Assembly (NCBI GenBank): GCA_049428505.1
Contig: JBMTAG010000001.1
Coordinates: 13,154 to 77,153 of the forward strand
Reading direction: 5' to 3'
Length of the DNA: 64,000 nucleotides
DNA from: Opitutaceae bacterium
Lineage (GTDB): Bacteria > Verrucomicrobiota > Verrucomicrobiia > Opitutales > Opitutaceae
Shown here: piece by piece, positions 24,303 to 62,436 of the stretch
Layout of the letters: each line of letters starts with the position of its first letter
Numbering within the stretch: position 1 is the stretch's first letter
Notes under the pieces: generated by a model
The model's database searches: none
Told to the model about the DNA's origin: nothing
Seen by the model: the letters and a program-made list of their open reading frames with translations, nothing else
Translations under genes and position numbers: made by a program

Positions 24303-24322
24303 ACCTCCGCCCCTTTTCCCCC

Positions 24323-48166: not shown

Positions 48167-49261
48167 TCACGGCAGGAGGTAAATCTCCGCCAGCGCCACC
48201 CCGGTGGCCCCGCCGACGCCGGCCACGCGCAACGTGTACGCGCCGGGGGCGAGGTTCAGCACCAGCGCGGCGTCGCGGCTGCCCGCCGCGAGCGGAAAGG
48301 CTCCCGCGTCCACCGCGGCGGTCGCCGCCTCGGCGCCCGCGGCTTGGGCCTGCCAGTTGTCGTTGGCCGCCACCACCTCGCTGCCCTGCAGCACCTCCAG
48401 GATCGGGTCCGCAAGGGCGCCGGCGACGCCGAAGGCGGTGAGTCCGGGCCCGATCGCCCGGACCAGCACGCGGCGCGGAGCGTCACCGGCCAGCACGAAC
48501 CCCGGGATGAGGACCGACTCGCCGCTGCCCACCTGCGCCCGCGTCGAGAGGTTGGCGAGCCGTCCGGCCGCCCCCGGAGCCGGCGTCTCGCCGATCACCT
48601 CGCGGGGCAGCGCCGTCACATCGAGGTCCGGGCTGGTGTTCCAGCGGCGCACCCAACCCGGCGGCGCGGGAACGGTCGTGCGGAGGATGACCGTGTTGTC
48701 GAGTTCCAGGTCCTCGCTCCAGATGAAGCTCGCGCCCGTGAAATCCTCGGCGACGTAATCCCCGTCAGGTCGGACCTGCTCGGCGGGATACTCCCGCGCG
48801 TTGGGCCAGGCGCTGTCGTCGAAGCCGGGCGCGTGCCACCCCGCGGGCAGCGGCGTGCGCTCGACGCGGGGATTGACGACATCGCGGTTGAGGGGACCGC
48901 GGTGAAACGCCTTGGCCTTCCACCGGGCGCTGGTGACGGTGCCGTCCCCGAGCCGGAGGATGAAGCCGGCGTCGCCGATCCGGTTCCCATATTCCAGCCC
49001 GGTGGCGGGCTCGGCGTTATCCTTGGCGAGCACCGCAATGGTCAGCGGGTATTCGGGCAGAATCCGCACCGAGACCTGGTTGTGCGGCAGGAAATCGATC
49101 GCATCCGCGGCCACCAGCTTCCCGTTGATGAAGACCGCGAACCAATTGTCGGCGTAGGCCGTGAGCCGGATCGTGTCGCTGAGGGTCGGCTTGACCTGCG
49201 CGCAGGCGGCGGACGTCGCCAGGACGGCCAGCAGGGCGAGCCTTCGGTGCCGCGGCGTCAT
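48167..49261 (-). CDS. secreted protein: jelly-roll-like N-domain plus one copy of the shared C-terminal module
   Basis: The ATG at 49261 overlaps the ECF sigma stop (ATGA). Signal peptide MTPRHRRLALLAVLATSAACAQ. The N-domain is a paralogue of 59739..60488, and the C-terminal module lies at 48170..48562. Confidence 0.7.
   Translation of the reverse strand: MTPRHRRLALLAVLATSAACAQVKPTLSDTIRLTAYADNWFAVFINGKLVAADAIDFLPHNQVSVRILPEYPLTIAVLAKDNAEPATGLEYGNRIGDAGFILRLGDGTVTSARWKAKAFHRGPLNRDVVNPRVERTPLPAGWHAPGFDDSAWPNAREYPAEQVRPDGDYVAEDFTGASFIWSEDLELDNTVILRTTVPAPPGWVRRWNTSPDLDVTALPREVIGETPAPGAAGRLANLSTRAQVGSGESVLIPGFVLAGDAPRRVLVRAIGPGLTAFGVAGALADPILEVLQGSEVVAANDNWQAQAAGAEAATAAVDAGAFPLAAGSRDAALVLNLAPGAYTLRVAGVGGATGVALAEIYLLP
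48170..48562 (-). repeat. shared protein module, copy 1 of 7 (131 aa, C-terminal)
   Basis: RLANLSTRAQVGSGESVLIPGFVLAG..RVLVRAIGPGLTAFGVAGALADPILEV...NDNW...GAFPLAAGSRDAALVLNLAPGAYTLRVAGVGGATGVALAEIYLLP*. Confidence 0.8.
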
Positions 49262-49869
49262 CGGCTGGAAGCGCCGTCCGCGCGTGATCCGCACAGGGTG
49301 CGGACCTCCCGGCGAAGCTGGACGCGAAGCCGGTGCAGGCGCACCTTGAGCGCGTTGAGGGTGAGGCCCGCCTCGTCGGCCATCACCCGATACGTGACGC
49401 CCGCGATGACCTGTTCGATCAGGCGGCGGTCGCGGCCCGCGCAGCGGCCAAGGGCGACTTCCAGCGCCTCCCGGACCTCATGCACGCGATCCTCCGCGGC
49501 AGGATCGGTGAGTCCCGCCCAGAAGCCGTCCTCGACGGGAATCGCGGGGCGGCAACGCAGGCGCCGCCGGTGGTCCAGCGCGCAGTTGCGCGCGAGCGTG
49601 AAGAGCCACGTCTCGAAGCGCGGGACCTCCCGCAGCAGGTGAAGTTGGGTGACCATCTTGACCCAGACCTGCTGGAGGACGTCCTCGGCCGCCCAGGGAT
49701 CGCCCACCTGGCCGCGCAGGAATCCACGGAGCCTCCGACGGTAGAGGCGGACCAGTTCTGTCTGGGCCAGCGGGTCGCCGGCCCGCGCGCGAATGACAAG
49801 CGCGGCCAGTGCCACTTCGCCGGACGGGACCGTTCCCGCCGCAACCTCGCGGGGATGAAAGGCGACCAT
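49258..49869 (-). CDS. RNA polymerase ECF-type sigma-70 family factor
   Basis: Sigma-2 region: LVRLYRRRLRGFLRGQVGDPWAAEDVLQQVWVKM...FETWLFTLARNCALDHRRR. Sigma-4 HTH: YRVMADEAGLTLNALKVRLHRLRVQLR. Confidence 0.85.
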   Translation of the reverse strand: MVAFHPREVAAGTVPSGEVALAALVIRARAGDPLAQTELVRLYRRRLRGFLRGQVGDPWAAEDVLQQVWVKMVTQLHLLREVPRFETWLFTLARNCALDHRRRLRCRPAIPVEDGFWAGLTDPAAEDRVHEVREALEVALGRCAGRDRRLIEQVIAGVTYRVMADEAGLTLNALKVRLHRLRVQLRREVRTLCGSRADGASSR

Positions 49870-49872
49870 GGG

Positions 49873-52800
49873 TCAGGGGACGTCGTACAGCTCGAGGAGC
49901 GCGACGCCGGAGGCGGCGCCCGCGCCGGAGATCTGGGCGGTGTAGGCGCCCGGCTCGAGGACCACCAGCAGGGCGGAATCGCGGGAATTGGCCGGCAGGG
50001 CGAAAGCCCCGACCTGGCCGGCGGCCGCGGCCAGCGCAACCGCCCCGCCGGCGCCCCAGTCGTCATTCAGCCTCAGCGCCGCGGCGGAGCCCTGCCGGTA
50101 CAGCGCGAGCTGCGGATCCGCAAGGACGTCCCCCACCCCGAAACCGGCGAGGGCTGGTCCCACCGCGCGGATCAGCAGTCGTTTCGGCTCGGAGCCGGCG
50201 ATCACGAAGCCCGCGATCAGCACCTCCGCGCCCGTTCCGACGCGGGTCCGGGCCGAGAGGTTGACCAGACCTGCAACCCCGGCGCCTGACCGGTGGTAGA
50301 GCTCGACCAACGCAACCCCGCTGGCGCCGGCCTTGCCGGTCAACTGGGCCGTGTAGGCCCCCGCCGCCGGCGCCGTAAGCAGTGCGGCATCGCGGCTGCC
50401 GGCAGGCAAAGCAAAGGCGCCGAATTCGGCCGCCGCGCTGGCCAGCGCCGTCGCGTCCGCCCCCCCGCCCCAGTCGTCGTTGGTCGCCAGCGCCACACCC
50501 GCCCCGCTGAAGAGGGTGAGGACCGGATCCGCCAGGGACCCTCCGACGCCAAAGGCGCCCAAGGTCGGACCCACCCCGCGGGCCAACAGGGTCGGCGGCG
50601 AGCCCCCCGCGAGCACGAAGCCCACGATGAGGGTGGCATCGCCCGCACCCGCCCCGGATCGCACGGAGAGGTTGGCCATCCGGGCGGTGCCGAGCGCCAC
50701 CCCCGCCGGGCCGGACTCCACGGTCCCGCCGGATCCGGAAACGAGCACGGAGTAGGTGCCCGCATCGGCGGCGCCCACGTTCGCCAGGGCCAGGGTCGAT
50801 CGCGTGGCGCCCGGGATCGCCACGCCCGCCTTCCGCCACTGGTAGGTCAGCGTTCCCTCCCCCGTCGCCCCCACCGTCAGCTGCACGCTCGCCCCCGGCG
50901 CCACGGTCTGGAACGCCCGCGGCTCCTCGGTGAGCACCGGCGGCCGGGCCTGCGGGGCAGAGCGGACCGCGAAGACCGGGTAGGATGACGTCATCAGCTC
51001 GTAACTGATGATCCCCTGCGCCGCCCGGTTGGGACCGTTCGCGGCGGGCACCGTGTTGTTGTAACCGAATTCGACCAGCCAGGCGCTCGTGGGCGCCGCG
51101 TTGCCGGAACGGAGCGCCGTCGAGGACCAGTAGGCGGTCGCCGGGGTCGTGGCCGACGGAAACACCAGCCGGTTGATCGCCGCCTGCGCGCCGTTCCTCG
51201 ACGCGGCCGTGGCGAGGGTGTAGTCGGTCAAGCTCTGCAGCTCGCGCACGTTCGGCAGGCGCCAATCGCCGTGGCCCGCGAGCGCGAGGTCTTCCGCGTA
51301 GGCCAGTGCGCTGGACCAAGTCATCGCGGGGGCGGGCACCTGCGTCCACATCAGCCCGGTGTCGAGGTCGGTGACCGTGCCGTCGAGATTGTTGACGTAG
51401 TGGTGCCCGTTCCCCGGGCGGGCGCCCCGCACATAGCGCGCGTGGTAGCGGAGCCGGCCGCCAGCGCTGATCGTCTCAGCCTTCGGCTTGGGCCCCAGAC
51501 CGCCGCCCGCGTTCACGCTCCAGACGCGCGCGGCGTCCGTGCCGTAGATATCGCTCGACCACCAGTACTCCGCCGCCCCCGCGGGATGCGGGGGGAAGAA
51601 GGTGGTGTTCATCGCGGGGTTGCCCTGGCCGAAGGTCATGAGGCTGAAGAGCTCCATCGGGGTCGGCAGGCGCCAGTCCGAATAACCCCCGGTATCGAGG
51701 GTAGCGGCCCGGGCGACCGCCGCCTCCCAGGTGCTCTCACCGGCATCGATCTTCTGCCACATCAGGCCGGTGACGAGGTCCGTCACCGTGCCGTCGCCGT
51801 GGTCACGGTACGCGGGCGGGTTGAGGGTGTAATCGGAGTCCTCGCCGAAGACGGGCGTCGCGTCGAGGGTCTGGCCGGTGTCGGGCAGCGCCCGCAGGCT
51901 CGGCCCACCCATCACGTAGGAAGTGATGCGATTGTTGCCGTTCTGGTACGTGGTCGTCGTCGGGCTGATGCCCGGGCGGCGCCAGGTGATCGTGAGCGTC
52001 TTCGGGTTGGCCGCCCGGTTCAGGCGCCAGCAGATGTCGTACGTCGTGGTGCCCACGACGTAGCGCATCAGGTAAGCGTCAGGAGAGGCGGGGGCGCCGG
52101 CCGACTCCACCAGGTTGCCGGCGTCGTCGGTGGCGAGGGAGGCGGGGTTGCGGTAGGCGGTGATGCGGGCGCCCGGAATCGCCTGGGCAACGTACCCCCC
52201 GGTGTTGTTCTGCCGGATGGCTTGCGTGGTGGGCTGGCCGTCGACCTGCCCGCCGAACTGGACCACCGTGCCGTGGAAGGCGGCGGGAAGATAGGGGGGC
52301 TGAGGTCCCGCCGCGTCCGTGCCGATCGCGTGGTAATGATACTTCCACGGGCCGTGGTCATGGCCGCCATCCGCGTCGAGCGCCAGGCGCGGGGAACCAT
52401 CCGGCTCGGTGTAGCCGTAGATTGGGTAGCCATCGAGGGCCCACGCTACCGGCAGGCCGACGCCCAGCACCGCCTGCAGGTGCACCGGCGCCAGGTGGTA
52501 GTGGTAGTCATCCGCGAGGCCGCAGTGTCCCCCGTAGAGGTCGAGCTCCCCGATCTCGTAGGAGACCCGGCCCCCGTTGTTGCGGGGATTGAAGATCGGC
52601 ACGCCATCGGCGCCGATCGCGATGGCCCCCCGCTGGAAGTTCCCGCCGGAGATCGGGATCGGGTTCGCCGCGGGGGTCGGCACCAGCGGCAGACGCCACA
52701 CGTTCGGCTTGCCGAACGCGAGCGACCCCTGATCCCGTTCGGGGCTGGTGAGCGAGGCGAAGTAGGAAACCGGCAGCGGCACCTGCTGCTGCCAGGAGGT

Positions 52801-53175
52801 GATGCCGACCATCAGGTTCGGCTGCCGGACCGGGTCCGGCATGCTGTCCGACTCGACGTGGAAGGTGGTCTGGTCCCAGTACGTGCGGACCTTCGGGCGG
52901 AAGGCGCCGAACGAGGCCGCCATCGCCGCTCCGTAGCCCGGGGGCGGCGCGCCGGCGGTCGCGGGCTCCGGTGCGTACGGGGCGACCACCGCGGCCGCGG
53001 CCCGGAACGGCGTCCGCGCCCGCTCCAAGGCCAGCTGGGCGAGCAGTTCGGCCCGCGCCGCCAGGACCTCCGGCGACGGCGGCTGGTCATCGTGCCAGGA
53101 ATGGGCCCCGGCCGGGGACCCACCGGCGAGCAGGGCGCCCGACAACGCGAGCAGGCGCGGGAGGATTCGCTTCAT
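49873..53175 (-). CDS. secreted multidomain protein: YHYH domain, 2x DUF1566-like, Ig-like, 2x shared module
   Basis: Internal ATG of ORF 49873..53262 (MKRILPRLLALSGALLAGGSPAGA). YHYH motifs GGHCGLADDYHYHLAP and KYHYHAIG. DUF1566-like TGLMWQK...GGYSDWRLPTPMELFSL and TGLMWTQ...GHGDWRLPNVRELQSL. Ig-like TLTYQWRKAGVAIPGA...DAGTYSV. Modules lie at 50296..50685 and 49876..50271. Confidence 0.75.
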   Translation of the reverse strand: MKRILPRLLALSGALLAGGSPAGAHSWHDDQPPSPEVLAARAELLAQLALERARTPFRAAAAVVAPYAPEPATAGAPPPGYGAAMAASFGAFRPKVRTYWDQTTFHVESDSMPDPVRQPNLMVGITSWQQQVPLPVSYFASLTSPERDQGSLAFGKPNVWRLPLVPTPAANPIPISGGNFQRGAIAIGADGVPIFNPRNNGGRVSYEIGELDLYGGHCGLADDYHYHLAPVHLQAVLGVGLPVAWALDGYPIYGYTEPDGSPRLALDADGGHDHGPWKYHYHAIGTDAAGPQPPYLPAAFHGTVVQFGGQVDGQPTTQAIRQNNTGGYVAQAIPGARITAYRNPASLATDDAGNLVESAGAPASPDAYLMRYVVGTTTYDICWRLNRAANPKTLTITWRRPGISPTTTTYQNGNNRITSYVMGGPSLRALPDTGQTLDATPVFGEDSDYTLNPPAYRDHGDGTVTDLVTGLMWQKIDAGESTWEAAVARAATLDTGGYSDWRLPTPMELFSLMTFGQGNPAMNTTFFPPHPAGAAEYWWSSDIYGTDAARVWSVNAGGGLGPKPKAETISAGGRLRYHARYVRGARPGNGHHYVNNLDGTVTDLDTGLMWTQVPAPAMTWSSALAYAEDLALAGHGDWRLPNVRELQSLTDYTLATAASRNGAQAAINRLVFPSATTPATAYWSSTALRSGNAAPTSAWLVEFGYNNTVPAANGPNRAAQGIISYELMTSSYPVFAVRSAPQARPPVLTEEPRAFQTVAPGASVQLTVGATGEGTLTYQWRKAGVAIPGATRSTLALANVGAADAGTYSVLVSGSGGTVESGPAGVALGTARMANLSVRSGAGAGDATLIVGFVLAGGSPPTLLARGVGPTLGAFGVGGSLADPVLTLFSGAGVALATNDDWGGGADATALASAAAEFGAFALPAGSRDAALLTAPAAGAYTAQLTGKAGASGVALVELYHRSGAGVAGLVNLSARTRVGTGAEVLIAGFVIAGSEPKRLLIRAVGPALAGFGVGDVLADPQLALYRQGSAAALRLNDDWGAGGAVALAAAAGQVGAFALPANSRDSALLVVLEPGAYTAQISGAGAASGVALLELYDVP
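49876..50271 (-). repeat. shared protein module, copy 2 of 7 (132 aa, C-terminal)
   Basis: GLVNLSARTRVGTGAEVLIAGFVIAGSEPKRLLIRAVGPALAGFGVGDVLADPQLALY...NDDW...GAFALPANSRDSALLVVLEPGAYTAQISGAGAASGVALLELYDVP*. Confidence 0.8.
50296..50685 (-). repeat. shared protein module, copy 3 of 7 (130 aa)
   Basis: ARMANLSVRSGAGAGDATLIVGFVLAGGSPPTLLARGVGPTLGAFGVGGSLADPVLTLF...NDDW...GAFALPAGSRDAALLTAPAAGAYTAQLTGKAGASGVALVELY. Confidence 0.8.
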
Positions 53176-53258
53176 GGGAGGAAGGATGCGGGCGGCGCGT
53201 GAAGGGCGGCGCGCGGAACGGATGAGGAACCTGTCATGTGCGGCCCGGCGGGCGGGCG

Positions 53259-55769
53259 TCACGGGACCTCGTAGATCTCGACCAGGGCGACGCCGCGGGC
53301 GTTCGCGTTCGGTCCGCTCACCTGCGCCGTGTACGCGCCCGGTTCAAGGGCGATCAGGACCGCGGCGTCCCGGCTGTTGGCGGGCAGCGGGAAGGCCCCG
53401 ACCGTGCCCGCGGCCAGCCCGATCTGCGCGGCGTTGGGCGCGGCGAGCCAGTTGTCGTTGGTCTCCAGCGCGGTGGTCGAACCCTGACGGCGAATCGTCA
53501 GTTGCGGGTCGGCGAGGGCGCCGCCGACCCCGAAACCGGCCAGCGTCGGACCGACCCCGCGGATGAGCACCTGCTTCGGCACATCGCCGGAAATCACGAA
53601 ACCGGCCAGCAGCGCGTCGCCGCCACTCACCTGGGCGCGGGCCGAAACGTTGACGAGGCGCGAAGCGCCCGCGGCACCCCCGCGCTCGTAGGCCTCGACC
53701 AGCGCCACCCCCGCGGCGGCCGTCTTGCCGGCCACGGTGGCCGTGTAGGCGCCCGGGCTGAGTTGGGCGAGCACCGCGGCATCGAGGCTCGCCGCCGGCA
53801 GCGCGAACGCCCCCGCTTGGGCCGCGGCCGAAGCCATTTCCGCGGCGTTCGCGGCGCGCCCCCAGTCATCGTTGGCCGCGACCGCGGCGCCGCCGGATCC
53901 CGTGACGGTCAGGACCGGATCGGCCAAGGCGCCGGTGACGCCGAACGCCGCCAGCGTGGGGCCGACCCCGCGGACGAGCACGGGCAGCCCGGCGCCGGGT
54001 CCCGCGACAAAGCCCACGATGAGGGAATCGTTGCCCGTCGCCGCGGTGGAACGGACGGAGAGATTCACCAGGCGGCTCGCGCCGAGGGTGAGGTTCGCCG
54101 CGGCCGAGGTGACGGCCCCGGCCGAGGTGCGCACGATCACGGTGTACGCCCCGACATCCGCGGCCTGCACCCGGGGCAAGCTGAGCAGCGAGGAGGAGGC
54201 GCCGGGGAGGTCCACGCCGTTGCGCTGCCACTGGTACGAGAGCGGCAGGGAGCTGACGGCCGTAACCGAGAAGGTCGCCGGCCCACCGACCGCGACCCGC
54301 CGCGCCTGCGGCTGCTGCGTGATCACCGGCGCGGGCGTCGCCGGTTCGAGCGCGCCGATGGTGTAGGCATAGGCGACGGCCCCGTGCTGCTTGCCCGGGC
54401 CCTCGTCCGCCGGCAGGAAGGACCGCACGTACTCGACCTTTACTCCGCCCGGCGAGACGGTCACGCGCGCGTAGCCGGAGTTGGCGACCCGGTCCCCGGT
54501 CGCGTAGGCATCGGTGTTGAAGAGCGAGTAGTTCGGATCCGCGGGATTGCCCAGCGACTGGTACACCACGCCATCGAGCTGCTGGCGAACGAAGATGTGG
54601 TCGTGGCTCTGGAAGAAGATCGTGACCTTGTTCGCCGCCATCAGCTGGTGGATGGGCATCGCCCAGCCGGGGCGCCGGGCCGCGAAGCCGGGGGAGCCGT
54701 TGCTGTTGAGCCCGCCCCACTCGAAGCGACCGGCGACGTCGATCCCGCCGCGGCCGGTGCCGAGGACGTGGTGGGCGAAGACGAACTTGTACTTCGCCCG
54801 GCTGTTCTCGAGCGTCTCCTTCAGCCAGCGGTACTGCGCGTCGCCGTGCGTGATCAACCAGCCATCCGCGGTCTTCGGTCCGCCGTAGAAGTCGCCATCG
54901 ACCACGACCGGGGATCCCCAGTAGGGATCGATCGCCACGAACAGCGCGTCGCCCCAGGTCCAGGCAAAATGGTTCCGGAGCAGGCCGATGTGGGGCACCA
55001 CCTCGGGGTTGCCGGAATAAAAAGCGTCCGGCGCGGGCTGCGGATAATGGGAGTTGCGGGCGTTCTGCGCCCAGACCGCGACGTTGTCCGGGGTCCCGTC
55101 GAGCAGGTAGCGCGCGGCCTGCTCGTGGTTGCCGTTCACCAGCACCAGCGCGGCGCCGCGGCCCGGGATGCCAAGATAGGGGCGCTGGATGCGATAGCGC
55201 TCGACGACCTGGGGCTGCGTCACGGCCCGCGGATTCGCCTGGTTGATCGTGTCGACGCTGAAATCGTCCCCGAGAAGGAAGAGGAAATCCGGCCGATCGG
55301 TCGCCACCAGCTGCATCGTCCGGGTGTAGAGCGTCGCATCGAACATGTTCCGGGTGCGCTCGGGATGGGAGTCCCCCTGCACCGCGAAGACGAAGGTGCT
55401 GCCCGCGGGACGCGCGGTCATGAAGGAATACTCCGGGCTGGCGTCGAACTCCGCCGCGCCGGCCGGACGGAATCGGATGCGGTAGTAATGCCTGGTGTTC
55501 GGCGCCAGGTTGCGCAGCTCCAGCTCCCGGGGCTGGCCGGCCGCAAACTCCAGCGTCTCACTGCGGCGGTCATAGGTGCCGGGAGCCGTGCCGTGCTCGA
55601 GGTAAGCGGCGAGCGCCGTGGAGGGCATGAGATTGGCGGCCATCACGGCATCGGTCGGGCGGCCCAGCACAAGGGTGCCGGGGAATTCGGCGGCCCCCAG
55701 CTCCGATCCGAAGCAGCAGAGCCCGAGCCCGATCCAAAACCCGAATGGAAAGCGGTGCGCATCGACCAT
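53259..55769 (-). CDS. secreted purple-acid-phosphatase-like metallophosphoesterase with Ig-like domain and 2x shared module
   Basis: N-terminal FN3-like part (NTRHYYRIRF). Metallophosphatase motifs VQGDSHPE, LLGDDFS, VNGNHE, FAHHVLG, FQSHDH. Ig-like LSYQWQRNGVDLPGA...DVGAYTV. Modules lie at 53688..54077 and 53262..53663. Confidence 0.8.
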   Translation of the reverse strand: MVDAHRFPFGFWIGLGLCCFGSELGAAEFPGTLVLGRPTDAVMAANLMPSTALAAYLEHGTAPGTYDRRSETLEFAAGQPRELELRNLAPNTRHYYRIRFRPAGAAEFDASPEYSFMTARPAGSTFVFAVQGDSHPERTRNMFDATLYTRTMQLVATDRPDFLFLLGDDFSVDTINQANPRAVTQPQVVERYRIQRPYLGIPGRGAALVLVNGNHEQAARYLLDGTPDNVAVWAQNARNSHYPQPAPDAFYSGNPEVVPHIGLLRNHFAWTWGDALFVAIDPYWGSPVVVDGDFYGGPKTADGWLITHGDAQYRWLKETLENSRAKYKFVFAHHVLGTGRGGIDVAGRFEWGGLNSNGSPGFAARRPGWAMPIHQLMAANKVTIFFQSHDHIFVRQQLDGVVYQSLGNPADPNYSLFNTDAYATGDRVANSGYARVTVSPGGVKVEYVRSFLPADEGPGKQHGAVAYAYTIGALEPATPAPVITQQPQARRVAVGGPATFSVTAVSSLPLSYQWQRNGVDLPGASSSLLSLPRVQAADVGAYTVIVRTSAGAVTSAAANLTLGASRLVNLSVRSTAATGNDSLIVGFVAGPGAGLPVLVRGVGPTLAAFGVTGALADPVLTVTGSGGAAVAANDDWGRAANAAEMASAAAQAGAFALPAASLDAAVLAQLSPGAYTATVAGKTAAAGVALVEAYERGGAAGASRLVNVSARAQVSGGDALLAGFVISGDVPKQVLIRGVGPTLAGFGVGGALADPQLTIRRQGSTTALETNDNWLAAPNAAQIGLAAGTVGAFPLPANSRDAAVLIALEPGAYTAQVSGPNANARGVALVEIYEVP
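53262..53663 (-). repeat. shared protein module, copy 4 of 7 (134 aa, C-terminal)
   Basis: SRLVNVSARAQVSGGDALLAGFVISGDVPKQVLIRGVGPTLAGFGVGGALADPQLTIR...NDNW...GAFPLPANSRDAAVLIALEPGAYTAQVSGPNANARGVALVEIYEVP*. Confidence 0.8.
53688..54077 (-). repeat. shared protein module, copy 5 of 7 (130 aa)
   Basis: SRLVNLSVRSTAATGNDSLIVGFVAGPGAGLPVLVRGVGPTLAAFGVTGALADPVLTV...NDDW...GAFALPAASLDAAVLAQLSPGAYTATVAGKTAAAGVALVEAY. Confidence 0.8.
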
Positions 55770-55789
55770 CCCCCATTCAAGCGCGGGCG

Positions 55790-55818
55790 GATGACGCCAC
55801 CGGGAAAGCTCGGATTAA
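55790..55818 (-). promoter_or_regulatory. conserved promoter-like element upstream of the metallophosphatase gene (TTAATC-N17-GTCATC)
   Basis: The same element, with the same 17-nt spacer and the same 20-nt distance to the ATG, recurs upstream of the paralogous gene at 59703..59731. Confidence 0.3.
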
Positions 55819-55832
55819 CAGAATGTCATCGC

Positions 55833-57002: not shown

Positions 57003-57014
57003 CAAGGCCGGGAA

Positions 57015-57041
57015 GACGGCGTGCACGCGCCGGCGGTTTCA
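57015..57041 (-). promoter_or_regulatory. ECF-type promoter-like motif TGAAAC-N17-CGTC
   Basis: Minus strand: TGAAAC (57041..57036), a 17-nt spacer and CGTC (57018..57015), followed by TTCCC, 12 nt before ATG 57002. Motif match only. Confidence 0.3.
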
Positions 57042-57072
57042 GCGCCCCGCCCGTTCCCGGTCCGTGCCGACG

Positions 57073-59682
57073 TCAGGGCGCCGTTTTCGGCGCGATGGTG
57101 TAGGTGTGCGCGACCCCGCGGTTGCGCAGCGTCGCCGTCTCCTGGGTGGGCAAGGCCGCGCGCACGTACTCCACCCTGGTCTCGGCTGCGCTCACGCGCA
57201 CGCGCAGGTGGCCGGAATTAGGCAGGATGGTGCCCGTCACGTACCCCCCGTCCCGGGCGCTTCCCGTGGAGAAATTGCCCGTCCCGGGCTGGGGACATTC
57301 CTGATAAACCACGCCATCGAGTTGCTGGTATCCGTAAAAGTGATCGTGACCGTGGAAGACCGCGCTCACCCCGTGCTGCACGAGCAAGGCATGGATGGGG
57401 ACGCCCCAACCGGGGCGCTTTTCGGCGAAACCCTCCGAATCGTCCGCGTTGCGGCCGCCCCATTCGTAACGCCCCGCCGCCTCGACGCCGCCGCGCCCGG
57501 AAGCCGCCCCGCCCACGAGATTGTGCAGGAAGAGGAACTTGTGGCGCGCGCGGCTGCGGGACAAGGTCCCCCGCAACCAGTCGTACTGGGTGCGTCCAAG
57601 GCTCCAGCGCCAGTTGTCGCCCCCGTTCGCGTTCGGATTTGCCAGCGTGTTGTTGTAGGGGTCGAGGACCACGAAGAGCGCATCCCCCCACTCCCAGGCG
57701 TAATAGTTCTCCAGCAATTCCTCCTGGCCGAGGATGGTGCGTTTCTCGGCGCTACCAGTGTAGATGCCGCCGGACACCGGCGTCGGGAAATGGAGCTTCC
57801 GCGCCCGCAGATTCCAGCTGCCCACGTTGCCATTCAAACCGGGGCTGCGGTCCGCCGCGAACACGTAGCCGTACTCGCCCTCGTGGTTGCCCAGCGAGAA
57901 GAAGAACGGCACCGAATGCGCGAACTGCGCAAACTCGTTCCGCAGGGTCACCGCCCGGTACTCCACCAGCCCGTAGTTCACGGTCAGGCCCGGGATGATC
58001 GTGGACAGCTTGTCCGACATGAAGATGTCGCCGAGGTCCACGTGGAAATCCGGGCCGTCCGCCGCAATATTGCGCATCGCCAGCGCGAAGAGCCCGGGAT
58101 TTGTCGCTTCGTCCAGATGCGGGTCGGCAGTAATCGTGAAGGTGAAATCGGCCCCCGGCGCCCGCTGGGTGACGAAGCTCCGTTCCCCCCGGGCGCGAAA
58201 GACGGCCTCGCCGGGCGCCCGGTAGCGGACGCGGTAATAGTGGCGCCGCCCGGCCGCCAGCGGGGCCCCGCCCGGAGGCGCCTCGATCCGGATCTCCGCC
58301 GGCGCGCCCGCCGGATAAACCGCGCTCGCGGTGCGCGCGACGTACTCCCCGGGACTCGCCCCGAACTCGACGTAGGCCTCGAGGGTCGAGGCCGCCTCGA
58401 AATTCACGGTGACCCCGCGGTCGGTGGGGATGCCGAGGAACTCCGGGGACGTGAAGAGGGCATCCTTGAAGGTGGCTGCCACAAGGTACGCGCCGCTCGC
58501 GCTGACCCCGCGGCTGCCGGCGGCATCCACCGCCGTGACCGCATAGCTGACGGTCGCCCCGGCCGCCTGCGTCGGAATCACCGCCGCGAAGATCCCGTCT
58601 GCCGCCAGTTGGTCCTCGTGGCGGCCGTCGTCCCACATCGGCACGCTCTGCGGCGCGCCGCCGCCGATCCGGTACTCGAGCGTGGCCTGCACCGGCCGCC
58701 CCCCGTCCGGGGTCTGGATCCGCGCGGAGATGACGGTGGCGTCGAGAAAGGTCGGGATCGCCGGCTGGGTGGCGACTTCCGCGAAGGTGAAGCCGGCCGT
58801 GGACGGGGCCGGCGCCGGGGCCTCGGCGTAAACCTCCACCAACGCGGTCCCGGTGCCCCCGCCGACCCCGCTCACGACGGCGGAGTACGAGCCGGCCGGA
58901 AGGCTGGCCACAAGGGCCGCGTCGCGGCTGCCCGCGGCCAGCTCGAAGGCGCCGAACGCGCGGGCCGCGGCCGCCACCTCGGCGCCGTTCGCCGCGCTGC
59001 CCCAGTTGTCGTTGGTGGCCACCACCACGCCGCCGCGGTAGAGTGTGATGGTGGGGTCCGCGAGCACGCCGCCGACCCCGAAGGCGCCCAGCCCCGGCCC
59101 CACCGCGCGGATCAGGATGCGCAGCGATCCGGGCCCCGCGATGACGAAGCCCGGGATGAGGACGTTGTCCCCGGTCCCCACGAAGGCCCGCGTGGACGCG
59201 TTGACCAGGTAGGCGCCCGCCGCGGGCTCCGCGTCGTAGACCTCAAGCAGCGCGACCCCGGAGGCACCCGCGGGCGCCGTGACCGGCGCGGTGTAACCAC
59301 GGGGGACCAGCGAACGCACGAGAGCCGCGTCGCGGCTGCCCGCGGGCAGCGCGAAGGCGCCCACCGCACCCATCACGGAGGCGTCCGCGGCCAGCCAGTT
59401 GTCGTTCTCGGCGAGCACCGTGGCGTCGGCCAGCAGCGCCAGTCGCGGATCCGCGAGCGAACCGGCGACCCCGAACCCCGCCAGCGCCGGTCCGACCGCC
59501 CGCACCAGCACCGGCTTCGCCCCCGCCCCGGCCACCACGAAGCCCGAGATCGGCGTGCCGGCGGCACCCCCGACGGCAGCCCGGGTGGCCAGGTTCACCA
59601 GCCGGGCGGAAGGCGGCTCCGCGGCCGACACGAGCAGGGCGGGCAGCAGCGGGAGCAGGAGCAGGCGGCGAAACAGGCGCAT
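57073..59682 (-). CDS. secreted metallophosphoesterase with 2x shared module at the N-terminus
   Basis: Signal peptide MRLFRRLLLLPLLPALLVSAA. Modules lie at 59236..59607 and 58828..59211. Beta-rich FN3-like spacers follow (RRHYYRVRY). Metallophosphatase motifs ITADPHLD, LGDIFMSD, LGNHEG, FLHNLVGG, FHGHDH. Confidence 0.8.
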   Translation of the reverse strand: MRLFRRLLLLPLLPALLVSAAEPPSARLVNLATRAAVGGAAGTPISGFVVAGAGAKPVLVRAVGPALAGFGVAGSLADPRLALLADATVLAENDNWLAADASVMGAVGAFALPAGSRDAALVRSLVPRGYTAPVTAPAGASGVALLEVYDAEPAAGAYLVNASTRAFVGTGDNVLIPGFVIAGPGSLRILIRAVGPGLGAFGVGGVLADPTITLYRGGVVVATNDNWGSAANGAEVAAAARAFGAFELAAGSRDAALVASLPAGSYSAVVSGVGGGTGTALVEVYAEAPAPAPSTAGFTFAEVATQPAIPTFLDATVISARIQTPDGGRPVQATLEYRIGGGAPQSVPMWDDGRHEDQLAADGIFAAVIPTQAAGATVSYAVTAVDAAGSRGVSASGAYLVAATFKDALFTSPEFLGIPTDRGVTVNFEAASTLEAYVEFGASPGEYVARTASAVYPAGAPAEIRIEAPPGGAPLAAGRRHYYRVRYRAPGEAVFRARGERSFVTQRAPGADFTFTITADPHLDEATNPGLFALAMRNIAADGPDFHVDLGDIFMSDKLSTIIPGLTVNYGLVEYRAVTLRNEFAQFAHSVPFFFSLGNHEGEYGYVFAADRSPGLNGNVGSWNLRARKLHFPTPVSGGIYTGSAEKRTILGQEELLENYYAWEWGDALFVVLDPYNNTLANPNANGGDNWRWSLGRTQYDWLRGTLSRSRARHKFLFLHNLVGGAASGRGGVEAAGRYEWGGRNADDSEGFAEKRPGWGVPIHALLVQHGVSAVFHGHDHFYGYQQLDGVVYQECPQPGTGNFSTGSARDGGYVTGTILPNSGHLRVRVSAAETRVEYVRAALPTQETATLRNRGVAHTYTIAPKTAP
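58828..59211 (-). repeat. shared protein module, copy 6 of 7 (128 aa, N-terminal region of its protein)
   Basis: YLVNASTRAFVGTGDNVLIPGFVIAGPGSLRILIRAVGPGLGAFGVGGVLADPTITLY...NDNW...GAFELAAGSRDAALVASLPAGSYSAVVSGVGGGTGTALVEVY. Confidence 0.8.
59236..59607 (-). repeat. shared protein module, copy 7 of 7 (124 aa, directly after the signal peptide)
   Basis: ARLVNLATRAAVGGAAGTPISGFVVAGAGAKPVLVRAVGPALAGFGVAGSLADPRLALL...NDNW...GAFALPAGSRDAALVRSLVPRGYTAPVTAPAGASGVALLEVY. Confidence 0.8.
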
Positions 59683-59702
59683 GGAGCATGCTGGCCCGAA
59701 CG

Positions 59703-59731
59703 CATGAAGCGCCGCGGCGGGCTCCGATTAA
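59703..59731 (-). promoter_or_regulatory. conserved promoter-like element upstream of the metallophosphatase gene (TTAATC-N17-TTCATG)
   Basis: Counterpart of 55790..55818, with identical spacing to the start codon. Confidence 0.3.
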
Positions 59732-59738
59732 AGCCCTG

Positions 59739-60488
59739 TCATCCGCCCTTGCCGGCATCCCCCGGGCGCACGATCTCGGCCGGCAACTCCAGGTCCGGCT
59801 TGGTGGTCCACCGGGGGCGCCACTCCGGACGCTCGATCCGCGTCCGGAAGACGACGGTGTTGTCGAGGTCGAGGTCGCCCGTCCAGATGAAGCGGGCCCC
59901 GGCGAAATCCGCCTGACCAAAGGCCTCCTTCGGCCGGACGCGCTCGACGGTATACTCCACCGCGGGCGACCAGTCCGCGTCGTCAAAGTCGACGGCGTAC
60001 CAGCGGGCGGGCAACGGCTGGCGCTCGACCCGCTTTTCGCCCCCGGGTCCCGCCACGGGCCCGCGGAAGAACGCGCGCGCCTTCCACGAGGCATTGGTCA
60101 CCGTGCCGTCGCTGAACTTGAGGATGAAGCCGCCGTCGCCGATGGACGTCCCGTACTCGTGGCCGGTGCGCGGGTCCGCGTTGTCCATCGCGAGGACCGC
60201 GATCGTCATCGGGTATTCCGGCAGCAGGTCGACGGAGACGACGTTGTGCGGCAGGAAGTCGATCGGATCCACCGCGACGAGGCGCCCGTTGACGTAGAGG
60301 GCGAACCAGTTGTCCGCGTAGACGTTCGCGCGGATCGTGTCCCGCAGCGTCGGCTTGATCACCCCCGCATCCGGGCCCGGGGCCGCCTTTCGGCCCGGCC
60401 GGGGCCGGCTGCCCTCCGCGGGAGCATCAGCCCCCGCGAGGAAGGGGACGCACAGGAGGGCGAACAGGATCAGGCGTGGCGAGTTCAT
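59739..60488 (-). CDS. secreted jelly-roll-like protein, paralogue of the N-domain of 48167..49261
   Basis: ATG at 60488 (the ORF opens with GTG 60500). Signal peptide MNSPRLILFALLCVPFLAGADA. About 60% identity by eye to the other copy: KPTL.DTIR...YADNWFA...NG.LVA.D.IDFLPHN.VSV..LPEYP.TIAVLA.DNA.P.TG.EYG..IGD.GFIL...DGTVT.A.WKA.AF.RGP. Confidence 0.7.
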   Translation of the reverse strand: MNSPRLILFALLCVPFLAGADAPAEGSRPRPGRKAAPGPDAGVIKPTLRDTIRANVYADNWFALYVNGRLVAVDPIDFLPHNVVSVDLLPEYPMTIAVLAMDNADPRTGHEYGTSIGDGGFILKFSDGTVTNASWKARAFFRGPVAGPGGEKRVERQPLPARWYAVDFDDADWSPAVEYTVERVRPKEAFGQADFAGARFIWTGDLDLDNTVVFRTRIERPEWRPRWTTKPDLELPAEIVRPGDAGKGG

Positions 60489-60533
60489 CCCCCATGGCAC
60501 GCCCGCCGGATGTGCGGTTCACTCGCAAACACA

Positions 60534-62348
60534 TTACGGCTCATTCATCCCGGGCGTTCTCCGACGGCGCAGCACCCACAGGTCGCCCTGCGGCGAATCG
60601 AACGGGTGCCTTCCCTCCGCGCTCGCGACGGGCTCATACTCCCGGTCGATCCACGCCAGCAGCAGCTTCCCCTCGCCTTCCCGTTCGCCGTAGCGGTTCA
60701 CGCCGTATTCCCGCAGGTCCCGGGTCAGGGCGACGACCCAGTCCGGCGGGCGGGCCTCGAGCTGCTGCACGAGGGCGGCCTCCGCCTCCCCCCGCAGGGC
60801 GAAGGAGAACAGGAAGAATGGCGGCACGGGGCTGGGCATACGGGTGAGGTAGTTCAGCATCAGGCCCTCCGGCAGCACGAGCAGCGTCCCCGTGGCGCCC
60901 TCCCGGCGCAGGACCTCCTGCGCGAAGTTCAGCCACGCGCCGTACGGTCGGGGCGGCGGCCGGGCGAGGAAGGCGTCCGCACCGGAACCCACGCGGAGCA
61001 CCCGCGAGGCCAGCTCCGCGCGCGACGCGGCGACAATCTGGCTGCCGTACCCCAGGAGCATCCCGGCCGCCGCCAGGATCAGCACCCGGCGCCCGGCCAC
61101 GGAACCGGAGGGGAGCACCCGCGGCCACTCGACCACCAGCACGGCCGAGAGGACCATCAGGGCCAACGCCGCCTGGTAGAAACCGAAATGATGCAGCCGG
61201 CCGTGCAACATCATCCGCGCCATCAACCCGGCGGCCAGCGTGGCCAGCAGGAGGCGCTCCGGACGCGCCCCGGCGCGCCTCCATGCGACGAACGCAAGGT
61301 ACAGCAGCAGCAGCCCCAGCCAGCTTCGCGGCACACCATCGCCCACGTGCGGCTGGCGCGCCGCCAGGCAGAGCACGCTCAGCCCGCCTCCGGCCGCGAC
61401 CGCTCGGAGGACCGGACGGCGGATCGCGCCGATCCGGTCCCCGAGGAGCGTCAGCGCGAGCAGCGTGACGAGCGCCCCCGCCGTCCATTCGAGATGCTCG
61501 CGGAAATTGGTCCACGGCGCGTTCCAGCCGGAGAGCAGGGCCTGAAAGTGACCATCCACGGCGGCACCCGAGGAAACCATCCGCCACGCGGTGGTCGCCT
61601 CGCTCCATCCCCGCATCCAGCCGCCGTCGCGCGCCGCGCGGAGCGCCAGAAGGCAGATGGGCAGGAGCGTGCCCGCGACGGCGGGCAGCACCGAGGCGCC
61701 GGCCACGGGAAGCCCGCGGCGGCGGGCGCAATGCACCGCGACGGCTCCCACCAGACCGCCCGCCAGGATGAACTCGGGCTTGAGCACCCAGCAGAGACCC
61801 CAAGCGAACCCCGCCGCCCCCGCCCACGCCGGGCGCCCCGAGCGCAGCCAGGCACTCGCCCCGAACGTGAGCGCGAGGACGGCGAGCATTCCGTGCGTGA
61901 CCTCGTGCGCGTAAGGAAAAGCATAATTGTAATTTCCGGTTTCCCCCAGCTGCGTGAATCCGCAGAGGGTCACGAACACTGCCCCGGCCGTCGCGGCCCC
62001 CCGCCAGCCCCACGCGCGCCGGAACAGGATCACCACGAGCACCAGGATCGCGGCGAAAATCACCAGATTGGCCGTGACCAGCGTCATCAGCCCCGGCCCA
62101 AAGCACCGGAAGAGGAGCCCGTTCCACTCCTGCGACCACGGCCCGTAGACGCCGTCTACCTCCCGGTAGAGGCGATCCCCGCACGCCAGCCGCCAGGCCG
62201 TGTAGAGCTCCCGCCCGGAGTCGACGATCTCGTCGGGCCAGCGACGCCACGAGAGCACCAGGAAGGGCGACGCGAGGCCCAGCAACGCGGCGGTCAGCAG
62301 CGCAGTGCCGAGGGAACGGAGTCGCGGACGGAATGGGCGATCAGGCAT
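60534..62348 (-). CDS. polytopic membrane protein, GT-C-fold (ArnT/PMT-like) glycosyltransferase candidate
   Basis: Internal ATG of ORF 60534..62621 with GGAG 9 nt upstream. At least 11 hydrophobic segments. The first loop WPDEIVDSGRELYTAWRL resembles the DE-containing loop 1 of GT-C enzymes. The C-terminal domain is soluble. Confidence 0.5.
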   Translation of the reverse strand: MPDRPFRPRLRSLGTALLTAALLGLASPFLVLSWRRWPDEIVDSGRELYTAWRLACGDRLYREVDGVYGPWSQEWNGLLFRCFGPGLMTLVTANLVIFAAILVLVVILFRRAWGWRGAATAGAVFVTLCGFTQLGETGNYNYAFPYAHEVTHGMLAVLALTFGASAWLRSGRPAWAGAAGFAWGLCWVLKPEFILAGGLVGAVAVHCARRRGLPVAGASVLPAVAGTLLPICLLALRAARDGGWMRGWSEATTAWRMVSSGAAVDGHFQALLSGWNAPWTNFREHLEWTAGALVTLLALTLLGDRIGAIRRPVLRAVAAGGGLSVLCLAARQPHVGDGVPRSWLGLLLLYLAFVAWRRAGARPERLLLATLAAGLMARMMLHGRLHHFGFYQAALALMVLSAVLVVEWPRVLPSGSVAGRRVLILAAAGMLLGYGSQIVAASRAELASRVLRVGSGADAFLARPPPRPYGAWLNFAQEVLRREGATGTLLVLPEGLMLNYLTRMPSPVPPFFLFSFALRGEAEAALVQQLEARPPDWVVALTRDLREYGVNRYGEREGEGKLLLAWIDREYEPVASAEGRHPFDSPQGDLWVLRRRRTPGMNEP

Positions 62349-62436
62349 CGCCCAGTCTCCGCCGGGCGGATGAACCGCGGGCGGCGCAGGGCCATTACAA
62401 AGCTGAGAATACCCGCCCGCGGAACGTGAACCGGCG

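Follow-up and report, generated by a model that had tools for sequence, protein, structure and literature searches.

The eight consecutive minus-strand genes between positions 48,167 and 62,348 of the DNA presented here are, on a modest balance of probability, a clade-specific elaboration of a conserved, signal-regulated extracytoplasmic gene set, with the regulation and function that we propose below. The DNA, hereafter the window, is a 64,000-nucleotide (nt) stretch of an Opitutaceae bacterium (GenBank assembly GCA_049428505.1, contig JBMTAG010000001.1, positions 13,154 to 77,153); the genes are designated g1 to g8 in the direction of transcription. The core of the proposed set would consist of a YHYH protein (often with Lcl_C, EF-hand, or PEBP domains), a lectin-like or carbohydrate-binding-module (CBM)-like jelly roll related to g2 (g2-like), a metallophosphatase with an FN3-like N-terminal domain, and usually a sulfatase of the formylglycine type. 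In the version found in the window, the metallophosphatase would have been duplicated (g3 and g5), as would the g2-like protein (g2 and g8), YHYH and Lcl_C would have been fused (g6), and the sulfatase is absent. Four array proteins would have gained a generic secreted-protein cassette of the lineage, made of immunoglobulin-like (Ig) and β-sandwich modules, and g1, g4, and g7 would have been recruited as extra genes.

The initial annotation of this region was made from the sequence and a list of its open reading frames (ORFs). The eight genes that it described, together with their gaps, were confirmed by an ORF check and by a third-codon-position G+C content (GC3) of ~0.85–0.91 in all eight ORFs, which is the codon-position pattern of genuine genes (G+C in the window is ~70%). 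The spacings computed from the coordinates, from g1 through g7, are 45, 56, 70, 63, 83, and 3 nt, and g7 and g8 share a 4-nt ATGA overlap. N-terminal signal-like segments are present in every array protein except the sigma factor g7. The proposed domain orders of g3 (57073–59682; a metallophosphatase with two modules), g5 (53259–55769; metallophosphatase, Ig, and two modules), and g6 (49873–53175; YHYH, two DUF1566, Ig, and two modules) were reproduced with Pfam and with a hidden Markov model (HMM) of the module. The calls of g7 (49258–49869) as an extracytoplasmic function (ECF) sigma factor and of an OmpR-family regulator and histidine kinase transcribed divergently from 62437 also stand, the former by its match to TIGR02937 and the latter by NCBIfam models and the HAMP and HisKA regions of the kinase. 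Finally, an AlphaFold2 (AF2) model of g8 (48167–49261) contains the jelly-roll-like domain and module as two β-sandwiches, and g4 (55833–57002) is NlpC/P60-like at the level of fold and in its invariant Cys and His. Close homologues of the array come from freshwater metagenome-assembled genomes (MAGs) of Opitutaceae and other Opitutae.

The conserved core and the history of the array

Loci in other genomes, numbered L001 onward, were examined as 10-kb flanks around an anchor gene. In one of them, from an Opitutaceae MAG (L006), six genes lie on one strand and encode a YHYH protein (51% identical to the N-terminus of g6), a sulfatase with no counterpart in the array, a metallophosphatase (43% identical to g3 and 41% to g5), a g2-like protein (63% identical to its window counterpart), a g4 homologue (52%), and an ECF sigma factor (45%); none of these proteins carries the module. 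A Bryobacteraceae locus (L089) shows an OmpR-type regulator and kinase divergent from an operon with 4-nt overlaps, in the order metallophosphatase, g2-like, YHYH, Lcl_C (twice), and sulfatase, with YHYH and Lcl_C encoded by separate genes. The core sulfatases of both loci contain the CxPxR formylglycine motif. The corresponding members in the window are g6 (YHYH and Lcl_C), g2 and g8 (g2-like), g3 and g5 (metallophosphatase), and the divergent two-component system.

The g2-like domain proved to be the informative anchor of this set. It remains 60–65% identical even in Bryobacterales, has ~60 invariant columns in an alignment of 29 sequences, and occurs alone or fused to various C-terminal domains. 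Scanning of metagenome contigs with this alignment returned at least 432 relatives and 80 loci. We then tabulated neighbors by tblastn over 83 g2-like loci, 44 of which span at least 8 kb. YHYH proteins accompany the g2-like gene in 64 of the 83 loci (37 of the 44 longer ones), sulfatases in 51 (35), and metallophosphatases in 41 (27). A related regulator was detected in 23 loci and a related kinase in 19 (15 each among the longer loci). The remaining features of the array are far less frequent neighbors: the module was found in 12 loci (9 of the longer ones), g1 in 4 (1), g4 in 3 (1), and a sigma factor of the window type in 3 (2). Because tblastn misses divergent sigma factors and regulators, the counts for these two classes are lower bounds.

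YHYH and g2-like domains are also joined physically. Of the 64 loci with both, 31 encode them in one ORF, always in that order, and the fused protein of L132 (L132:7322-10600) additionally carries EF-hands and a PEBP domain. The g2-like fusions as a group (P0276, P0282, P0283, P0271, P0288, and that of L132) end in a TIGR03437-type C-terminal domain (a JGI name), contain EF-hand and PEBP domains, or form a 1092-amino-acid YHYH–EF-hand–PEBP–EF-hand protein. These architectures suggest that the module of Opitutaceae and the TIGR03437 tail may play analogous roles. Elsewhere in L132, a neutral/alkaline ceramidase-like gene (PF04734; L132:3623-5053) lies just past the kinase, and genes for an FMN-dependent dehydrogenase and TruD sit between the sulfatase and the metallophosphatase. 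The neighbor census contains three such ceramidase-like hits; the ORFs in the equivalent kinase-side position of L108 (L108:679-2109) and L119 (L119:3515-5050) are probably the other two.

A Pfam census of 126 other neighboring ORFs identified ECF sigma factors as the commonest extra family. Loci that lack a two-component system have a canonical ECF sigma gene immediately upstream of the core, followed by a gene for a ~320-amino-acid single-pass protein laid out like an anti-sigma factor. Thus, lineages differ in whether the core is under a two-component system or an ECF/anti-sigma pair. Examples of the pair, with sigma factors of 172–191 amino acids, are found at L163:8324-9843, L166:8380-9836, L153:3844-5315, L115:3807-5299, and L131:4066-5558. 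The single-pass protein has no Pfam hit and a conserved periplasmic domain that ends in '...FHHE.HH'; it probably represents a new family of anti-sigma factors.

Judged by these linkages, the YHYH, g2-like, metallophosphatase, and sulfatase genes constitute a predicted extracytoplasmic gene set that is conserved in at least two phyla, represented by Verrucomicrobiota and a Bryobacteraceae genome. The joint recurrence of the families in two phyla and the shared promoter-like elements described below support the proposal of the initial annotation that the array and its divergent two-component system form a dedicated, co-regulated extracytoplasmic set. Its authoring model did not recognize the combination as a described system, and our literature searches likewise returned no paper on it: they turned up neither a description of the set nor functional work on YHYH proteins from bacteria. 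The set itself, the g2-like family, and the module family all appear to be undescribed. It is tempting to go further, and we do so tentatively, with somewhat less than even confidence: the set may be an undescribed extracytoplasmic machine that acts on one specific substrate under signal control at hundreds of loci, at least in Verrucomicrobiota and Acidobacteriota, with YHYH and g2-like domains as its recognizing or catalytic heart and with repeated rewiring between two-component and ECF/anti-sigma control.

The eight-gene order of the window has a shorter history. The initial annotation had proposed testing its conservation across related genomes, and the outcome was mixed. The order is kept in full in L001 and L002, at ~80% identity, together with the flanking genes for a Gfo/Idh/MocA protein and a gamma-glutamyltranspeptidase; the conservation of these flanks indicates plain synteny. 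Other relatives have it in rearranged or shortened form or have lost it. L140 lacks g4 and has one extra metallophosphatase in its array, and in L133 the sigma gene directly follows a g3-like gene. Three loci (L007–L009) in which g4 is 85–89% identical keep only the last 35 codons of g3, g4, one Lcl_C fragment, and the sigma gene, with the same downstream flank. In these loci (L009:6558-7528 and the same in L007 and L008), the promoter box and start codon of g5 are joined to the Lcl_C fragment, in frame with sigma; the fused ORF of L009 encodes 313 amino acids, with Lcl_C at residues 31–95 and Sigma70_r2 at 154–220. This arrangement looks like a deletion scar. From these rearrangements and deletions, we conclude that the eight-gene order is young and fluid. 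Comparison of the loci identifies g1, g4, and the sigma gene as clade-specific additions.

We had also used g4 as an anchor because of its position in the middle of the array. Its homologues number at least 549 in species-representative genomes, essentially all from Verrucomicrobiota. In ~75 of the 80 g4 loci that were fetched, no other array gene lies within 10 kb. Partners were found in the close clade and L006 only, and g4 was rejected as the anchor of a conserved cluster. A small EF-hand protein (L003:9066-9386; L004:8713-9033) adjoins the stand-alone g4 homologue (~45% identity) in two of these loci, with a sulfatase and a TonB-dependent receptor a few kb away, which may be a faint echo of the core theme.

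Promoter-like elements and the two-component system

The spacers upstream of g1, g2, g3, and g5 have a 13-mer in common that stops exactly 13 nt short of the ATG. By itself the 13-mer is not enriched in the window (9 hits versus 6.6 expected). The fuller element is bipartite, ATGAC(A/G)-N5/6-T(T/C)A(A/T)(T/C)-N17-20-TCA(T/C)(C/G)C, and is followed by ~19–21 nt to the start codon. When 2.2 Mb of sequence was searched on both strands, the strict bipartite pattern occurred 15 times, in every case upstream of a g3, g5, or g6 homologue of the clade, and it did not occur in 20 shuffles.

All elements of the array are on the minus strand. The box and −10-like hexamer of g3 (59702–59742) read ATGACA-N5-TTAAT-N19-TCATGC, with 19 nt to the ATG, and are kept in L001, L092, and L093. 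Those of g5 (55789–55829; ATGACA-TTCTG-TTAAT-N19-TCATCC, 19 nt to the ATG) are kept in L001, L090, and L007–L009, and those of g6 (53197–53237; ATGACA-N6-TCATC-N18-TCACGC, 21 nt to the ATG) in L001 and L002. The 88 nt between g1 and the regulator gene contain a promoter-like element of g1 (62368–62409; TTCTCA-N5-GTAAT-N20-TCATCC, 19 nt to the ATG); a variant before g2 (60508–60548; ATGAAT-N5-GTAAT-N20-CATCC, 19 nt to the ATG) reaches into the final codons of g1. No box of the response-regulator type was found upstream of g4, g7, or g8. The box upstream of the YHYH gene in L006 is AGAATGACAGGACTGTCATTTTC, and both there and in L007–L009 a box stands directly in front of the sigma-containing unit.

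These boxes resemble the published sites of CopR (CTGACAn5GTAAT), CzcR (GAAACn6GTAAT), and CusR (AAAATGACAAnnTTGTCATTTT) (PMC11195947), whose half-sites are matched by ATGACA-N5-TTAAT upstream of g3 and g5 and by -N5-GTAAT upstream of g1 and g2. Their geometry is that of class II promoters of the PmrA type, at which two hexamers 5 nt apart take the place of the −35 element (PMC10570014).

The response regulator (62437–63192, plus strand) belongs to the OmpR/PhoB family and is nearest to the CopR/CusR/CzcR subfamily; its best match is TIGR01387, with 207.6 bits, below the cut-off of 279.2. The histidine kinase (63189–64000, plus strand) runs off the end of the window and consists, as far as it extends, of a transmembrane (TM) segment, a ~165-amino-acid periplasmic segment, a second TM segment, a HAMP domain, and the start of HisKA. 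Among NCBIfam models it scores best with TIGR01386 (heavy-metal sensor kinase), a partial hit of 78.9 bits versus a cut-off of 292.6. Kinase orthologues with 54–90% identity adjoin related clusters, and the regulator gene is divergent from the operon in L093, L104, L128, L156, L168, and L089, as it is from g1 in the window.

Four of these relatives (L104, L128, L156, and L168) lack the sigma gene and encode regulators 71–77% identical to that of the window. Their regulator–operon intergenic regions contain ATGA(A/C)(G/A)-N5-TTAAT-N19-hexamer-N20-ATG, in which the hexamer is TAATCT, TAATGT, or TAATTT in three loci and TCACGG in L104. Because the box keeps its geometry where sigma is missing, it seems to track the regulator, and TCATCC would be the GC-shifted −10 element of an activator-dependent promoter. 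We had considered TCATCC as an ECF −10 element read by g7 and rejected this in favor of a GC-shifted housekeeping −10, since the sigma-less relatives with an orthologous regulator have TAATNT at that position.

A different element precedes g4. In the g3–g4 spacer (57015–57040, minus strand), (T)GAAACC-N16-CCGTC lies ~40 nt before the ATG and fits the ECF promoter pattern AAC...CGTC (PMC6767563). It is present in all eight clade members that have both g4 and this sigma factor, in an otherwise divergent spacer, against a background of 0.004 per 290 nt. Three distant g4 homologues that stand alone (L012, L013, and L011; 42–45% identity) are preceded by a similar sequence, TGAAAC-N16-18-CGTC, and one g4 homologue is divergent from an ECF sigma/FecR pair. 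These cases hint at ECF control of g4-family genes outside this clade as well.

Scans for sigma-70 consensus promoters gave no hit, and no convincing terminator was identified. Despite the short gaps and the want of convincing terminators, five elements of the response-regulator type and one of the ECF type lie inside the array, which is probably divided by its promoters into five units and not transcribed as a single operon of eight genes. A regulatory cascade is the most economical model. The CopR/CusR-like regulator would bind the predicted ATGACA-N5-(T/G)TAAT box, which would stand in for the −35 element, and would activate five promoters, from which g1, g2, g3–g4, g5, and g6–g7–g8 would be transcribed as separate units. 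The ECF sigma factor made from the last of these would then drive the AAC...CGTC promoter before g4, so that control would pass from the two-component system to the sigma factor and on to a cell-wall-type hydrolase.

Proteins of the array and the ~133-amino-acid module

The sigma factor g7 matches TIGR02937 over residues 36–188 with 52.3 bits (cut-off 42.9) and Pfam Sigma70_r2 with 55.7 bits; the nearest NCBIfam models, SigZ and TIGR02989 (Rhodopirellula/Verrucomicrobium type), both score below cut-off. It starts 3 nt past the stop codon of g6 and is therefore probably co-transcribed with g6 and g8. Orthologues occupy the same position in L001, L140, L133, and L007–L009. No anti-sigma gene was found beside g7: g8 is extracytoplasmic, the next gene is convergent, and the gene upstream encodes the exoprotein g6. 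Two less obvious candidates were rejected. One was g8 as a non-canonical anti-sigma factor; the protein has a signal peptide and two extracytoplasmic β-sandwiches, and g8-like genes elsewhere have no adjacent sigma gene. The other candidate was an anti-sigma gene hidden in the apparent ~860-nt gap past g8. This gap is occupied by a conserved convergent gene (47417–48157, plus strand), which is why we place the end of the array at g8. The ~250-amino-acid product of this gene is 80% identical to a 257-amino-acid product in L002; it lacks a signal peptide, and no Pfam hit is recorded for it.

The secreted single-domain protein g2 represents the g2-like β-sandwich family; neither Pfam nor NCBIfam has a model that it hits, and a permissive Pfam scan (E≤10) of g2 and g8 returned nothing of use. 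It shares this domain, at ~60% identity, with g8, in which a signal peptide is followed by the g2-like domain and one module. The AF2 model of g8 has a predicted local distance difference test score (pLDDT) of 87.5. In this model the g2-like domain takes the form of a jelly roll; a Ca-dependent lectin and a rhamnosidase with a CBM67 are among the best fold hits. The g8 architecture is common in Opitutaceae; a linked sigma gene was seen only in window-type loci. In g6, a signal peptide is followed by YHYH (26.9 bits; cut-off 25), two Lcl_C domains (DUF1566; two matches, 154 bits), Ig_3, and two modules, and the protein contains two YHYH motifs as well as an HDH motif.

The metallophosphatases g3 and g5 are paralogues with ~38% identity. 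In g3, a signal peptide, two modules, and a choice-of-anchor-X-like segment precede a putative FN3-like domain and the metallophosphatase (Pfam Metallophos, 33.3 bits; cut-off 21.5); the segment, at residues 347–375 between modules and metallophosphatase, matches NCBIfam NF041940 over this short stretch (choice-of-anchor X, 29.8 bits; cut-off 25). The order in g5 is signal peptide, putative FN3-like domain, metallophosphatase, Ig_3, and two modules. Similarity to PhoD and Pur_ac_phosph_N is weak (for g5 versus PF16656, E = 0.0044 and 18 bits, below the cut-off of 30). All five metallophosphatase motifs (D[PS]H, GD.F, GNH[ED], H[HN], and [GS]HDH) are kept in g3, g5, and three homologues, and both enzymes are predicted to be catalytically intact. 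The tyrosine of GDxxY, which is the chromophore ligand of purple acid phosphatases, is absent: the motif reads GDIFM in g3, GDDFS in g5, and GDTFM in the homologues. The description of these proteins as purple-acid-phosphatase-like is not supported in this respect. Sequence searches of the PDB with the metallophosphatases, the YHYH region, and the g2-like domain gave no significant match.

The secreted protein g4 comprises an uncharacterized N-terminal domain of ~240 amino acids and a C-terminal NlpC/P60-like papain-fold domain of ~120 amino acids. It has no Pfam hit, NLPC_P60 included, even at E≤10. An AF2 model built from a 31-sequence alignment has a pLDDT of 89. Among the top 50 Foldseek matches of this model in the PDB, nearly all are NlpC/P60 domains (probability up to 0.99; TM-score TMt 0.4–0.6), with E-values that are weak (0.015 or worse). 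Cys286, His340, and Asn354 are invariant and Asp347 is nearly invariant among 31 family members, which share the pattern DC.W...GD...H...FTKNG. The database gene model of g4 (P0001) is 14 residues shorter than the start chosen in the initial annotation.

The first gene, g1 (60534–62348), encodes a polytopic membrane protein with at least eight hydrophobic segments (residues 13–440, by hydropathy) and a ~160-amino-acid C-terminal soluble tail. Neither the single sequence nor a three-sequence profile matched Pfam (including at E≤10), NCBIfam, or the PDB. Its earlier label, GT-C-like, is compatible with the membrane layout (8–13 TM segments followed by a soluble domain) and stayed unconfirmed by sequence searches. 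An invariant WPDEIVDSGRELY follows the first TM segment and somewhat resembles first-loop motifs of GT-C proteins.

The initial annotation had regarded a common module as the feature that ties the set together, and this was not borne out. Seven copies lie within 48173–59610, all on the minus strand: one in g8 (48173–48571; HMM score 187 bits), two at the C-terminus of g6 (49876–50691; 191 and 185 bits), two at the C-terminus of g5 (53262–54083; 197 and 181 bits), and two past the signal peptide at the N-terminus of g3 (58825–59610; 186 and 168 bits). A search of the six-frame translation of the 64 kb with the HMM found none elsewhere in the window. A profile search of 1.84 billion representative proteins, however, detected the module in 18,378 protein clusters (50% identity), 10,163 of them at E≤1e-30, on unrelated exoproteins, and most core loci lack it. 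The usual layout is a C-terminal tandem pair in proteins of 276 to 6,689 amino acids. In a Pfam census of 50 carriers, Ig domains were present in 20, in an Ig plus two-module cassette like that of g5 and g6; the other domains were He_PIG, NHL and other propellers, pectate-lyase-like, Calx-beta, phytase-like, metallophosphatase, and Lcl_C. The module is therefore rejected as the unifying feature of the array. It is a generic secreted-protein appendage of the lineage, and its high local density reflects the fact that the array proteins are all exported.

The module has no Pfam model or hit (E≤10) and no significant sequence match in the PDB; its similarity to NCBIfam NF038127 (DVUA0089 family) is weak (E = 0.0048, below cut-off). 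Fold hits to 5sv5, 1nqd, and 3afg (PPC and collagen-binding domains) came from a search with the whole two-domain model of g8, so that their assignment to one or the other domain is uncertain. Like the PPC and ColG collagen-binding β-sandwiches (TMt 0.58–0.63), the module would be a tandem, mostly C-terminal β-sandwich of secreted proteins; unlike them, it also occurs N-terminally (in g3) and lacks a significant Pfam or PDB sequence match. A very large family that marks secreted proteins of Verrucomicrobiota, it merits a family model of its own.

The remaining genes of the window have ordinary chromosomal functions (acetyl-CoA synthetase, Rho, LpxB, a LolE/MacB-type permease, LysRS, and an unlinked sulfatase). 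The sulfatase (24104–25900, plus strand; Sulfatase and SGSH_C domains, CTPSR motif) is of the formylglycine type, lies 24 kb from the array with no regulator box in front of it, and is the only sulfatase in the window; it is 27% identical to the core sulfatase of L089. Two large ORFs with coding-type GC3, at 8835–12125 (minus strand, 1096 amino acids) and 19490–21250 (plus strand, 586 amino acids), have no Pfam match at E≤1e-5.

Alternative readings and known systems

What the conserved set does is the least certain part of our proposal. The secreted or surface-bound proteins might bind an anionic, probably glycan-like, polymer of the extracellular space or envelope through their g2-like and Lcl_C domains, and the metallophosphatases, joined by the sulfatase in other lineages, would strip phosphate and sulfate ester groups from it. 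A metal cation is a plausible signal for the kinase.

Several observations weigh against this view of the array. Every step of the regulatory cascade is read from sequence motifs, and TCATCC, the −10-like hexamer, has little in common with TATAAT. The regulator and kinase both score below the curated cut-offs of the heavy-metal subfamily. Other lineages place the core under CpxR-like systems or ECF/anti-sigma pairs, and since the wiring differs among lineages, the input signal may not be conserved. The array is dispensable, as sibling lineages have deleted most of it, and the window version has no linked sulfatase, which most core loci possess. No glycoside hydrolase or transporter recurs beside the core in the Pfam census of neighbors, and the substrate is for this reason a guess. 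Finally, the fold hits of the g2-like domain and the module are generic β-sandwiches without significant sequence support.

The best-scoring subfamily of the two-component system, and boxes that resemble CopR and CusR sites most closely in L006, could instead point to metal stress or metal handling. Cu, Ag, or Zn would be sensed by a system like CopRS, CusRS, or CzcRS, and the role of the His-rich YHYH proteins, among others, would be to bind or buffer envelope metal and not to process esters; the YHYH and HDH motifs of g6 and the EF-hands of fused relatives would suit such a role. However, no recognized resistance gene (multicopper oxidase, CopB/C/D, RND efflux, or P-type ATPase) lies in or near any of ~170 loci, and the conserved hydrolases would be left without a role. 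The sub-threshold scores of the regulator and kinase and the CpxR-like or ECF/anti-sigma control of the core in other lineages count against this explanation as well, and we consider it unlikely.

Slightly less probable still is a phosphate-starvation regulon of the Pho type, in which the secreted metallophosphatases, with alkaline-phosphatase-superfamily sulfatases at other loci, would free phosphate from organophosphates when it is scarce. The initial annotation had raised phosphoester scavenging, and part of its basis persists in the two secreted metallophosphatases with intact motifs and their weak similarity to PhoD and Pur_ac_phosph_N. The PEBP (anion-binding) and EF-hand domains of fused relatives would also fit, and the half-site ATGACAG is the reverse complement of CTGTCAT, the core of the Pho box. 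The two-component system is nevertheless not PhoBR-like by its sequence, and the scavenging reading is weakened accordingly: the regulator falls below the PhoB cut-off (186.5 versus 296.2 bits) and scores higher with other subfamilies, and the kinase has a large periplasmic segment and HAMP domain, unlike PhoR. Moreover, Pst, PhoU, and other phosphate-transport genes are absent from the recurrent neighbors, and the core sulfatases have the formylglycine CxPxR motif of true sulfatases.

A third possibility, improbable in our judgment, is remodeling of the envelope or peptidoglycan under envelope stress, analogous to CseBC-SigE, with g4, g1, and the sigma factor as the functional heart and the exoproteins as accessories. 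It would account for the retention of g4 and sigma as a pair in L007–L009, where the rest has been deleted, and it is consistent with the ECF-type promoter-like element before g4, with the NlpC/P60-like fold and Cys/His pair of g4, and with the SigE/CseBC precedent. Against it, most core loci by far lack g4, g1, and the sigma gene, the array of L140 has no g4, and similarity searches revealed no sigma gene beside ~75 solitary g4 homologues; what recurs across phyla are the YHYH, g2-like, sulfatase, and metallophosphatase families, not g4. Least probable of all is that the genes are unrelated secreted-protein neighbors whose conservation reflects recent common ancestry and whose shared motifs are lineage-typical promoter features: the full order is indeed kept only at ~80% identity, where the Gfo/Idh/MocA and gamma-glutamyltranspeptidase flanks are conserved too, sibling lineages have lost parts of the array, which is fluid, and the module is generic, but the same families lie together in a different phylum with overlapping reading frames, YHYH is fused to the g2-like domain in 31 loci, and the bipartite box is confined to these junctions in 2.2 Mb and occurs nowhere else in the window.

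The reading of the array as an elaborated extracytoplasmic core, if correct, provides a functional context for YHYH (PF14240), for which we found no experimentally assigned function, and for the g2-like domain, for which neither Pfam nor NCBIfam has a model; ester hydrolases always accompany these two families. The locus is also a tractable example of regulation in a little-studied phylum, in which a regulon with a CopR/CusR-like box is combined with an orphan ECF sigma factor and its single predicted target. If the hydrolases act on sulfated or phosphorylated polymers, the set would bear on the turnover of carbon, sulfur, and phosphorus by abundant freshwater Opitutae. There is as yet no evidence for a new mechanism. 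Two-component systems of the OmpR family, ECF sigma factors, metallophosphatases, Lcl_C and Ig domains, and the NlpC/P60-like fold are all of known kinds, and the regulatory logic proposed here has precedents.

Among known proteins, g4 is comparable to NlpC/P60 endopeptidases (PDB 4xcm, 3h41, and 6b8c), with which its C-terminal ~120 amino acids share a fold class and an invariant Cys followed by a His; it differs in having no Pfam match, weak Foldseek E-values, and an N-terminal domain of ~240 amino acids that has no known relative. The C-terminal region of Legionella Lcl, which contains Lcl_C, recognizes sulfated glycosaminoglycans, and a role in carbohydrate recognition or trimer formation has been suggested for DUF1566 (PMC11162425). 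Similarly, g6 has two Lcl_C domains, and in L089 an Lcl_C protein is encoded beside a sulfatase in the same operon. In contrast to Lcl, g6 has no collagen-like repeat and its Lcl_C domains are fused to YHYH, Ig, and modules; the host of the array is a free-living freshwater bacterium, and host adhesion is not implied.

Two regulatory systems offer closer parallels. CopRS, CusRS, and CzcRS resemble the array system in that its regulator and kinase score best there and in that a predicted box occupies the −35 position, with a −10-like hexamer ~19 nt downstream, within a divergent intergenic region; the array scores stay below the cut-offs and the predicted targets are not metal-resistance genes. 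In SigE/CseBC of Streptomyces coelicolor (ECF39), an ECF sigma factor without an anti-sigma factor is transcribed under two-component control (PMC8999054, PMC6767563). The sigma factor of the array likewise has no cognate anti-sigma factor, a box of the response-regulator type lies upstream of its unit, and the nearby OmpR-family two-component system probably supplies its transcription. As in that system, the predicted target with an AAC...CGTC promoter encodes an NlpC/P60-like protein. The array differs in belonging to another phylum, in lacking a CseA-like lipoprotein, and in the placement of its sigma gene among exoprotein genes, 12 kb from the two-component system rather than in the same operon. 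It differs further in the reach of its regulator, which also appears to drive four exoprotein units directly.

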